DNA from: Myxococcales bacterium
GTDB lineage: Bacteria > Myxococcota_A > UBA9042
Length of the DNA: 26,534 nt
Assembly: GCA_037441385.1 (NCBI GenBank)
Contig: JBBISH010000091.1
Coordinates: forward strand, 1 to 26,534
Direction of reading: 5' to 3'
In this document: one piece after another, positions 4,661 to 9,559 of the stretch
How the letters are laid out: each line of letters begins with the position of its first letter
How positions within the stretch are numbered: the stretch's first letter is position 1
Notes under the pieces: generated by a model
What the model was told of the DNA's origin: nothing
Seen by the model: the letters and a program-made list of their open reading frames with translations, nothing else
Database searches by the model: none
Position numbers and translations under genes: made by a program

Positions 4661-7600
4661 CTACGGGATCGCCGTGCCTTCCTTGTCGAGCAGCTCCACG
4701 TCCAGGGCCAAGGCCTTGAGCTCCTTGAGCAAGACGTTGAACGACTCGGGCAGGCCCGGCTCGAGCAGGCCTTCGCCGCGCACGATGCTCTCGTACATGC
4801 GGGTACGGCCGACCACGTCGTCGGACTTGACCGTCAAGAACTCTTGCAGGGCGTAGGCCGAGCCGTAGGCCTGCATGGCCCACACTTCCATTTCGCCCAA
4901 GCGCTGGCCACCGAACTGGGCCTTGCCGCCCAGCGGCTGCTGGGTGACCAAGCTGTAGGGGCCGATCGAACGCGCGTGGATCTTGTCGTCGACCAGGTGG
5001 TGCAACTTCAGCACGTACATCACGCCGACCGTGACCTTCTGGTCAAAGCGCTCGCCGGACTTGCCGTCGAACAGGTCGGTGCGGAATCCGCCGGTGATGC
5101 CCGCGCGCGCCAGCAGACCGCGGATGTTGTCCTCGGTCGCGCCGTCGAACACCGGCGAGGCCAAGCGGATGCCCTCGCTGTTGTCGTCCACGAAGCGCAG
5201 CAGATCCTCGTCGCTCAGGTCGTCGATGGTCTTGGCGATCACTTCGTCGCCGAAGATCGCCTTGGCCGCATTGCGCAGGTCGCCGATCGACTGATTGGCT
5301 TCCAGCGCCTCGCGCATCTTCAGACCCAGGTTGCGCGCGGCCCAGCCCAGGTGCGTCTCCAGGATCTGGCCCACGTTCATACGCGACGGCACGCCCAGCG
5401 GGTTCAGCACGATGTCGACCGGGCGGCCATCGGGCAGGAACGGCATGTCTTCTTCGGCCAGGATGCGCGAGACCACGCCCTTGTTGCCGTGGCGGCCGGC
5501 CATCTTGTCGCCCACCTGCAGCTTGCGCTTGATCGCGACGTAGACCTTGACCATCTTGATCACGCCGGGGGGCAGCTCGTCGCCGCGGACGAAGCGCTTG
5601 ATCTTCTCTTCGAAGTAGTAGCGCGTCTCGTTGGCCAGGTTCTCCAGGTGATCGAGCAGGGCGGTCAGCTGCGCCGACACGTCCTTGTCCACAACCCGCA
5701 GATCCGCCCACGCCGCCGGGACCTTGAAGCGATCGCCGTCGTCGTAGACCTTGTCGGGCAGGGCGCTCATCACCTCGTCGTTGAGCTCGACACCCTTGCC
5801 CAGGATCACTTCGCCGTGGTCGCCAGCGACCTTGTTGGCGGTCTTGTGACCCTGGATCAGGTGGCGCGCCTTCTCAAAGGTCGAGCCGGCCAGGATCTGG
5901 ACCTCGTCCGCCATGTCCTTGAGCAGGTTCGACTTCTCGTCCTCCTCAATTTCCAGCGTCCGCTCGTCCTTGGGCTCACTCTTGCGGGTGAAGACCTTGG
6001 CGTTGATCACCGTGCCGACCACGCCCGGGGGGACGCGCAGCGAAGTGTCGCGGACGTCGCCGGCCTTTTCGCCGAAGATCGCGCGCAGCAGCTTCTCTTC
6101 CGGGCTCAGCTGGGTCTCGCCCTTGGGCGTGATCTTGCCGACCAGGATGTCGCCGGTCTTGACCTCGGCGCCGATGCGGATGATGCCCGAGACGTCGATG
6201 TCCTTGAGCGCCTCTTCCGAGACGTTGGGGATGTCGCGGGTGATGTCTTCCTTGCCCAGCTTGGTGTCGCGCGCGACGCACTCGAATTCCTCGATGTGGA
6301 TCGAGGTGAACAAGTCTTCCTTGATCACCTTTTCCGAAATCAGGATCGAGTCCTCGTAGTTGTAGCCGCCCCAAGGCATGAAGGCCACGACCACGTTGCG
6401 GCCCAGGGCCAGCTCGCCGCGGTCCGTCGCCGGGCCGTCGGCGATCACGTCGCCCTCGCGGATCTTGTCGCCGCGGCGCACGATCGGCTTCTGGTTGACG
6501 CAGGTGCTCTGGTTCGAGCGGGTGTACTTGACCAGCTTGTAGATGTCGGTCGACGCCGACGGATCGTCGGGCGCCAGATCGCGCTTGACCACGATACGGG
6601 TCGCGTCGACGCGCTCGACCGTGCCGGTGTGCTTGGCCACCACCGTCACGCCCGAGTCGGCGGCCACCGTCCGCTCCAGATTGGTCCCCACGAACGGCGA
6701 GGTGGTGCGCAGCAGCGGCACCGCCTGGCGCTGCATGTTCGAACCCATCAGCGCGCGGTTGGCGTCGTCGTTCTCCAAGAACGGAATCAGCGAGGCGGCC
6801 ACCGACACCAGCTGGTTGGGGCTCACGTCCATCAGCTCGACTTCGTCGCGGCCGACCTGCTTGAATTCACCCGACTTCCGCACGTCGATCAGCTGGCCGT
6901 CCAGGCGACCTTCGCTGTCGAGCTTGGCGTTGGCCTGGCAGATGACGCGCTCGTCTTCTTCCAGCGCCGAGTAGTACTCGTAGGCGTCCTGCGGCTTGCC
7001 TTCCTTCACTTCGCGGTACGGCGTCTCGATGAAACCGTACTCGTTGACGCGCGCGTAGGTCGACAGCGACGCAATCAGACCGATGTTCGGACCTTCCGGC
7101 GTCTCGATCGGGCAGATGCGGCCGTAGTGGGTCGGGTGCACGTCGCGGACTTCGAAGCCGGCGCGGTCGCGGGTCAGGCCGCCCGGGCCCAGGGCCGACA
7201 GACGCCGCTTGTGCGTCACTTCGGACAGCGGGTTGGTCTGGTCCATGAACTGCGACAGCTGCGAGCTGCCGAAGTACTCGCGCACCACCGCGCTCATCGG
7301 CTTGGCGTTGATGAGCTCGTGGGGCATCGAGGTCTCGATGTCCTGGGCGATGCTCATCTTCTCCTTGATCGCCCGCTCCATGCGCACCAGACCCACGCGG
7401 CACTGATTCTCCATCAGCTCGCCCACCGCGCGCACGCGGCGGTTGCCCAGGTGGTCGATGTCGTCGATCGAGTAACCCTGGCGCTGGTTCTTCAGGGCCA
7501 GCAAGTACGCGATCGTGCGCAGGATGTCGCTCTTGGTCAGCGTGTAGCACGGCGCCACCGGGGCCAGACCCAGGCGGTCGCGCAGCTGCTCGTTGCCCTC

Positions 7601-9559
7601 GACCTTGACCTGCACCTGGCGATTGCCGCGCACCGGCATGATCAGCACCGAGCGCTGCTTGCTGACCTGCGCCGTCAACACGCCGGTCGACAGGCGCTGC
7701 TCGGGGGCATAGTGCATCCCGCCCATGTCCAAGCGCTGGCGCAGCAGCTCGTGGGCTTCGACCGCCACTTCGGCGTTGGCGTCCACCGGCCTCACCACCA
7801 CCTCGCCGCCGTCGAGCTCGACGGTGACGGGGCTGCTCTCGCCAAAGGCCGCCTGCAGGGCCGCGACCAGCTCACCCGGCAGCGCCTGGGTCGGCTGGGC
7901 AAACGCCTTGGCGTCGATCTTCCAGCTGACGCGCTTCTCGCTGCCGTCCGCGCCCTTGACCACGAAGCCCAGCGCCCAGTCGGCCTGCTTGACCGTGTCG
8001 GCCGGCCGGCTCAGATCGGCGACCGAGAACACGCTCGCCAGCTGGGCCACCAGCTGCTGCGGCGAGACGCGCGCCAGATCCGGGAAGGTGGTCTTGTCCA
8101 GCTTGACCTGGAACGTCTTGATCTTCGTCCCCGTGTTGTACAGGTGGAAGTCCAGGCGCCAGTTGCGGTAATCGCCGCCGGGGGCCGACAGGTCAAAGCT
8201 GCGGTCGCGCCGCATCGACACCGTCTCCAGGCGGACCAGGCCCTGCTTCTTCAAGGCCTGCAGCGCGTCGCGGTGAGCGAACTTGTACTCGACCTTCATG
8301 CGGCCGACGTCGCTCAGGTCGTAGCGCTGCTCGTTGAAGAACAGGTTGTTGAAGTAGTTGCGGGCCTGGTTGGCGCTCGGCGGGTCACCGGGCCGCAGGT
8401 GGTGGTAGATGTCTTCGATGGCCTGCTCGGCCGACGGCGTGCGCTTGCGCTTCAGGACGTCGTCGATGTCCTTGGCCAGCGTGTCGCGCAGGTACGGACC
8501 CACGTTGAAGCGGTCGATGAACAGCACGTCGAACTGCGCGACCCCGTGGCCCAGCAGCTTGGCGGCGTCGTCGACGCTCAGCGTCGCGTTGGCCTCGTAG
8601 ACCACCTCGCCGGTGTTCTCGTCGATGATGTCTTGCGCCACCACCTTGCCGTCCAGGGCTTCCAGCGGCATCTCCAGGCGCGTCAGGCCCGAGTCGCGCA
8701 GTTTCTTGATCATGCGCGGCGTGAACTTCTTGTTGCGCTCGAGCAGGATCTCGCCGCTCTCGGGGTGGCGGATCGACTCCGAGGTGCGCTGACCTTCCAG
8801 CAGGTCAAAGTTCAGCGAACGGAAGGCCTTGACCTCCTCGCCGTGCTGCTCCAGGTGGATCGTCTCCACGTCGTAGTAGTAGTTGAGCAGGTCTTCGACC
8901 GAGTAGCCCAGCGCGCGCAGCAGCACCGACACGTACAGCTTGCGGCGGCGGTCGATGCGCACCCACAGGATGTCCTTGTGGTCGAACTCGAAGTCCAGCC
9001 ACGAGCCGCGGTACGGGATCACCCGCGCCGAGTAGATGCGCTTGCCGCTGGCGTGGGTGCGGCCCTTGTCGTGCTCGAACAGCACGCCCGGGCTGCGGTG
9101 CAACTGGCTGACGATGACGCGCTCGCTGCCGTTGATGATGAAGGTGCCGGCGTCGGTCATCAGCGGGATTTCGCCGAAGTAGACTTCCTGCTCCTTGATG
9201 TCGCGCACGGTCTGCACGCCGGTCTCCGACACATCGAACACCACCAGGCGGATCAGCACCTTGATGGGCGAGGCGAAGGTCATGCCGCGCGCGCGGCACT
9301 CGGTCACGTCGTACTTGGGCTCTTCCAAGTGGTACGACACGAACTCGAGGCTCGCGGTCTTGTTGAAGTCCTGGATGGGGAACACCGACGAGAAGATCGC
9401 CTGGAGACCCACATTCTCGCGCTGGCCGGCGGGCACATTGCGCTGCAGGAACTTGTCGTAGGATTGACGCTGGACGTGGATGAGGTCGGGAACCCTGACC
9501 ACTCGGTTGATACGCGAAAACGTTTTGCGAACCCGAAGGTCCATCGCAGTGCGTGCCAT
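4661..9559 (-). CDS. rpoB: DNA-directed RNA polymerase subunit beta (1632 aa, carries an extra ~236-aa insertion)
   Basis: Rif cluster [74 protein letters not shown] upstream of the ATG. Confidence 0.99.

Follow-up and report, generated by a model that had tools for sequence, protein, structure and literature searches.

The stretch of DNA analysed here, referred to as the window, comprises 26,534 nucleotides of contig JBBISH010000091.1 from a Myxococcales bacterium (assembly GCA_037441385.1). It is GC-rich and carries rpoC (11-4615) and, following it by coordinate, rpoB (4661-9559), both on the minus strand. The rpoB open reading frame encodes an RNA polymerase (RNAP) beta subunit of 1632 aa without a single internal stop, and its translation contains the Pfam domains Rpb2 1, 2, 3, 45, 6 and 7; no Pfam family was called between about aa 430 and 700. 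Within this uncalled region lies a family-specific insert (about aa 433-673; 7541-8263, minus strand) that the RpoB proteins of five sister families lack and that forms the subject of this report. It begins with a basic, nearly invariant N-terminal connector that is modelled with low confidence (aa 433-455; 8195-8263). The connector is followed by segment A1, the strand-strand-helix first half of a predicted outer domain (aa 456-511; 8027-8194), and by a contiguous copy that would form an inner domain (aa 512-616, with A2 at 515-572 and B2 at 573-612; 7712-8026). A less conserved return loop (aa 613-623; 7691-7723) leads from the inner to the outer domain, whose second half, B1, consists of strands and then a helix (aa 624-665; 7565-7690). 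The insert closes with a C-terminal connector, APVAPCYT, that is nearly invariant in the family alignments (aa 666-673; 7541-7564).

The insert boundaries were set from two clean alignments to sister-family loci (L014 and L017), with three others (L015, L016 and L018) excluded as their longest frames were antisense. Between the flanks that bound about 240 aa in the window, RpoB proteins of the five other families of the same class have only 2-7 aa. When the two flanks, placed at aa 424 and 674 of the window's own protein, were searched separately against all Protein Data Bank (PDB) chains, they mapped to residues 406 and 420 of Escherichia coli beta, in the C-terminal half of the beta lobe, to 320 and 332 in Mycobacteria and to 282 and 303 in Thermus. 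The corresponding positions are 279 and 376 in Bacillus subtilis and 307 and 428 in Clostridioides difficile, leaving Firmicute gaps of 96 and 120 aa, respectively. Firmicute beta-i5, described in the portions of bioRxiv 10.1101/2022.01.17.476619 and PMC7749167 that deal with it as a beta-lobe insert of two BBM2 modules, has published sizes of 99 and 121 aa. The agreement of these sizes with the gaps places the insert in the beta-i5 loop, with the conserved blocks found on either side of E. coli beta about 406-420 as its neighbours. A literature search on the naming of beta i5 returned nothing relevant.

A sequence-only reading of the window had divided the insert into four segments in the order A1-A2-B2-B1, and the coordinates it gave translate exactly to the peptides it quoted. 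It had further aligned A1 with A2 and B1 with B2, and both pairings proved significant. When Smith-Waterman local scores were compared with those of 2000 shuffles of one partner, A1/A2 scored 57 (z 9.5) and B1/B2 scored 47 (z 6.6), neither score being reached by any shuffle, whereas the four A-versus-B pairs were at chance level (z -0.9 to 0.5, with 595 to 1732 of the 2000 shuffles reaching them). A1 followed by B1, aligned with A2 followed by B2, scored 87 (z 14). The same relationships were evident from hhalign comparisons of sub-alignments of 32 sequences, all from one family: A1 matched A2 at 96% (E 3e-9, 30% identity over 53 columns) and B1 matched B2 at 92% (E 7e-7, 31% identity over 39 columns), while every A-to-B pair stayed below 1%. 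A comparison of the insert profile with itself gave a colinear off-diagonal match of positions 6-164 on 65-217 at 95.9%, which is the pattern of A1 falling onto A2 and B2 onto B1. Thus the repeat is real and conserved across the family, and its order is A-A-B-B rather than A-B-A-B.

We predicted the structure of aa 426-680 with AlphaFold2 from a 32-row alignment and assigned secondary structure with DSSP. The best model had a mean pLDDT of 84.4 and a pTM of 0.70, and the four lower-ranked models had mean pLDDT values of 77-79. In model numbering, A1 comprises strands 43-50 and 53-61 and helix 75-86, and A2 comprises strands 104-110 and 116-122 and helix 136-147; B2 has strands 153-158, 161-166 and 172-177 followed by helix 179-184, and B1 has strands 203-207, 213-217 and 224-230 followed by helix 232-238. 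This shared element order puts the two copies in register. Predicted alone, A2+B2 gave the same elements with similar confidence (pLDDT 84.3, pTM 0.74; lower-ranked models pLDDT 73-80), as expected of an autonomous domain. The boundaries of the inner copy coincide with the start and end of this predicted domain, and its point of insertion is the loop between the A helix and the first B strand. In searches with VIA-align both copies superposed on the same solved domains, and reference domains of 91-106 residues were covered almost fully both by the inner span and by an outer span that skips the inner piece. The outer-copy match extends over model positions 26 to 254, and since a compact 91-residue reference can cover a span of 221 residues only if the inner domain is skipped, we read A1+B1 as one domain. 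A complex prediction pairing the A1 half with the B1 half scored 0.02 and 0.25 against a mark of 0.32, and was counted neither way. Each half of the outer copy has its paralogue in the corresponding half of the contiguous inner copy, and the model supports a second domain of the same predicted fold formed by the outer halves. The proposal that a domain of about 100 aa sits inside a loop of its own paralogue is thus supported by the repeat order together with the predicted two-domain model.

The sequence-only reading had also remarked on a loose resemblance to flagellin and hook-associated insertion domains, and three kinds of search pointed the same way. Foldseek aligned the two-domain model colinearly with Helicobacter pylori FliD over 324 columns (E 9.9e-5, prob 0.97), at low TM-scores of 0.25 and 0.19, and a single copy matched Vibrio flagellins with prob 0.92-0.97 and TM-scores of 0.45-0.51. 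VIA-align, which is independent of Foldseek, was run against 48,161 chains with the best 50 rows listed for each query; among the top 20 matches to the inner copy, 18 were FliD, flagellin or phage tail, sheath or baseplate proteins, and the other two were virus capsid proteins. In these alignments the predicted domain superposes over most of its length on FliD D3 or a flagellin outer domain. Among viral models in BFVD, tail tubular B and baseplate J-like proteins matched with prob 0.96-1.00, the lowest E-value being 0.008. The third family set returned by an ESM Atlas feature search was a cluster with Flagellin_IN in 22% of its members (score 0.94, 5 of 30 matches), which we treat as a lead only. 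At the level of sequence, no Flagellin_IN or FliD Pfam family was found at E up to 10 in any of the 12 family members searched, Pfam (same members and threshold) and PHROGs gave no consistent family for the insert, and a profile search of the PDB yielded nothing relevant to flagellin or FliD. The two-domain nested fold and its assignment to this class are thus supported by structure prediction.

The insert is restricted to a single Myxococcota family. In a phylum sample of 401 genomes queried with the full 255 aa, it was matched in all 28 genomes, from 12 genera, that belong to the same family as the window, in addition to the window's own genome, and no credible match was found in the 372 others. 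Weak matches comprised a second match within an in-family genome and five from outside the family (E 0.0017-0.005), one of which (G149) was dismissed as noise, its frame running antisense to a long TPR-like open reading frame; the remaining four sit in frames of 290-483 aa. A collection of 5.8 billion proteins yielded 31 matching clusters, mostly of about 1630 aa, with 55-73% identity in the insert among the full-length ones; four were shorter and partial, and P0032 covers 37% of the query. Those clusters that carry names are labelled as Myxococcota or Myxococcales metagenome-assembled genomes, with one labelled Pseudomonadota, and the carrier organisms are known to us from metagenome-derived sequences only.

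We also sought a relative with a single A-B copy, as the sequence-only reading had proposed, and found none among the RpoB clusters, the phylum sample, or longer and short proteins. A profile search of the window's own genome matched rpoB alone, with no single-copy or stand-alone form; among longer proteins all 23 matches were the same RpoBs, again with no single-copy form, and among proteins of 59-195 aa the sole match was P0033, a 173-aa rpoB fragment, with no stand-alone form. A phmmer search of a library of 1.8 billion representatives recovered the same fragment and no carrier other than RpoB, apart from a weak match to P0034, a 1178-aa repetitive surface-type protein (E 4.6e-5 over five stretches, 32% identity) that we judged to be repeat or composition noise. 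Likewise, a designed DARPin-armadillo repeat found by PDB sequence search (E 4e-4, best stretch 0.048) was set aside as a repeat artefact, and a PDB profile search of the insert gave nothing below E 0.29. We found no description of this Myxococcota RpoB insert in the literature searched; supplements and the Lane & Darst catalogue might list one at this position. Being fixed in every sampled genome of the family and absent from five sister families, the insert is a sharp phylogenetic marker.

Pairwise Nei-Gojobori estimates against nine family loci showed that the insert is under purifying selection, with a ratio of nonsynonymous to synonymous substitution rates (dN/dS) of 0.11-0.41 in the nine comparisons. 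The core segment just after the insert gave 0.00-0.18, and the segment before it, consisting of lobe and beta-i4, gave 0.08-0.49. Conservation within the insert is highest in aa 433-455, the N-terminal connector, where identity is 96-100% and dN/dS does not exceed 0.10. The slightly wider stretch of aa 426-455 carries a net charge of +5 to +8 across the family and is modelled at a pLDDT of about 57. As a candidate contact element, the connector might touch the lobe, DNA or a partner. Of the two copies, the inner one is mildly acidic (family mean -4) and the outer one mildly basic (+2.5).

Two features of base composition were noted in passing. G+C content is 0.71-0.72 over the insert core (window 7600-8049) compared with 0.61-0.70 elsewhere in rpoB, which could reflect an Ala/Val/Gly/Arg-rich composition or a foreign origin. 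A stop-free plus-strand frame of 3187 codons (2-9565) runs antisense to both rpoC and rpoB; we take it not for a gene but for the artefact commonly seen in high-G+C coding sequence.

The explanation that we favour, and regard as probable, is that the insert is a lineage-specific insertion in the beta lobe in which one plug-in module is present twice and self-nested, as A1[A2B2]B1, at the beta-i5 loop. The module would be a domain of roughly 105 residues, with strand-strand-helix followed by three strands and a helix, and is predicted to fold like the outer domains found in flagellins, in FliD (D3) and in phage tail-sheath or baseplate proteins. A whole second copy (A2+B2) would have entered the first (A1...B1) at the loop that joins its helix to its third strand; since such a domain must have its two ends near each other, it could be plugged first into RpoB and then into itself. 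Other lobe inserts suggest by analogy that the module may project from the outer face of the lobe as a peripheral appendage, anchored by the two nearly invariant connectors, of which the N-terminal one is strongly basic. Packing against the lobe or contact with nucleic acid is the probable role of these connectors, and the two more variable domains could offer a docking surface. The insert would then act not in catalysis but probably in docking, contacting a lineage-specific partner or the DNA close to the downstream cleft.

Among competing explanations, the one that survives best, which we nevertheless consider unlikely, is that rpoB acquired the nested pair in a single step, from a flagellar or phage-tail gene already carrying such a pair, and that no duplication took place inside rpoB. 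It is consistent with the lack of a single-copy RpoB intermediate in the searches made, with the colinear alignment of the whole two-domain model to H. pylori FliD, and with the extra head domains of similar fold in that protein, as given in the relevant part of PMC8306008. Weighing against it are the low TM-scores of that same alignment, the failure of every search to find a sequence relative outside these RpoBs, and the absence of a FliD_C match from the window's own genome, which is 91% complete.

We regard as improbable a second alternative, in which two separate local duplications produced a tandem series of four units, each of about 50 residues (A, A', B, B'), that make up one continuous beta-rich body. 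All four segments are strand-hairpin-plus-helix elements, and a shifted tandem array would also be expected to produce the colinear self-alignment described above. Yet A and B are mutually dissimilar, A2+B2 is predicted to fold on its own as confidently as it does within the whole insert, and the compact 91-106-residue references are covered both by the inner piece and by the span that skips it; moreover, two matching partial duplications need more events than one insertion of a whole copy into a loop. We give similarly little credence to the idea that the repeat is real and its three-dimensional reading wrong, the fold assignment being an artefact of a shallow alignment. The 32 sequences do come from a single family, and the confidence of the lower-ranked models falls to mean pLDDT values in the seventies for both the whole insert and the inner copy. 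Against this, the whole-insert and inner-copy predictions agree in all secondary-structure elements and two different aligners returned the same structural neighbours.

The remaining alternative is that the insert is a diverged Firmicute-type beta-i5 made of two BBM2/BEAN domains, with the AABB order only apparent. The insertion loop is identical, beta-i5 likewise consists of two copies of one module, and sections 2.2 and 2.3 of PMC11515920 describe most lineage-specific beta inserts as BEAN domains. Section 2.3 of that paper gives the BEAN domain as helix-strand-strand / strand-strand-helix, in two antiparallel brackets with a TGD/E motif. Each copy of the insert is instead predicted as strand-strand-helix followed by strand-strand-strand-helix, and neither TGD nor TGE occurs in aa 433-673, whereas the beta-i4 region of the same RpoB has a TGE. 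By hhalign the inner copy and the whole insert matched the family's own beta-i4 BBM2 profile, the sole BEAN profile compared, at 0.1% and 1.6%, respectively, and RNAP-beta BEAN domains score above 70% among themselves in the comparison that PMC11515920 reports. No RNAP beta chain was present among the best 50 rows of either VIA-align list, below which a weaker match may exist. By predicted element order, motif and profile the insert is not BBM2/BEAN, and with a repeat that is nested and not tandem we hold a diverged beta-i5 to be very improbable.

RpoC, at 1534 aa, also carries an extra segment of about 100-120 aa (aa about 181-322; window 3650-4075, minus strand), where the RpoC proteins of five sister families have only 21-61 aa between matching flanks. 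A relationship between this segment and the RpoB insert was rejected (z 1.5). Its position is presumably the clamp-side region in which the Thermus and actinobacterial beta' inserts sit. More tentatively than for the nested insertion itself, we suggest that RpoB might have taken a plug-in domain from the pool of flagellar and phage-tail decorations, in a lineage in which no FliD was found, that the domain might have grown by self-insertion as in flagellins, and that the resulting stalk, together with the insert in the beta' clamp region, might form a contact or docking device, peculiar to this lineage, at the DNA-entry side of RNAP.

Comparison with known systems shows which features of the insert have precedents. 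The beta-i5 of Firmicute RNAP (B. subtilis, C. difficile), in those parts of its published descriptions noted above, shares the loop, the presence of two module copies and the peripheral position. It differs in having 99-121 aa with two tandem BBM2 domains, whereas the Myxococcota insert has about 240 aa with two nested copies of another predicted fold and lacks a TGD/E motif. FliD D3 (head domain 2) and the D2 of Vibrio/Pseudomonas-type flagellins are the nearest predicted structural counterparts, without sequence or profile similarity to the insert, and they belong to secreted axial proteins whereas the host here is RpoB. For the outer domains of phage contractile-tail sheath and baseplate proteins and for T7-type tail tubular protein B, all BFVD matches had E above 0.001, and there was no PHROG sequence similarity.

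The nested architecture is itself documented. Head domain 2 of FliD is a loop insertion in head domain 1 according to the account of FliD in PMC5072837, and the head domains of H. pylori FliD include two additional ones of similar fold, as described in the relevant part of PMC8306008. In D4/D5 of Geovibrio thiophilus flagellin (PMC11532411, in its domain description) and of H. pylori FliD (PMC8306008), a domain of like class is duplicated with the copy lying within a loop of the original, and chains of both proteins (9au6_A and 6iwy) are among the VIA-align matches listed. These are extracellular filament decorations, whereas here the architecture would sit on a cytoplasmic enzyme. Within RNAP, the eight SBHM domains of cyanobacterial beta' Si3 are, as described in part of PMC10895346, not simply tandem, several being formed from distant parts of the chain. 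Si3 is thus, like the insert, a lineage-specific RNAP insert of repeated domains that are not simply tandem, but it lies in another subunit and at another site (the trigger loop), has the SBHM fold and is much larger. Given these precedents in FliD, flagellins and Si3, both the self-nested architecture and the idea of a lobe insert were already known; what is new is this predicted fold at this site, self-nested, in this lineage. As beta inserts have been described as almost all BBM2/BEAN, a different module here would widen the repertoire of domains recruited by RNAP, and the insert would be a tractable target for studying what lobe appendages do, be it partner capture, DNA loading or pausing. 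It is also a clean case, readable from the sequence, of a domain that has entered its own paralogue, a mode of growth documented for flagellar outer domains and cyanobacterial Si3.

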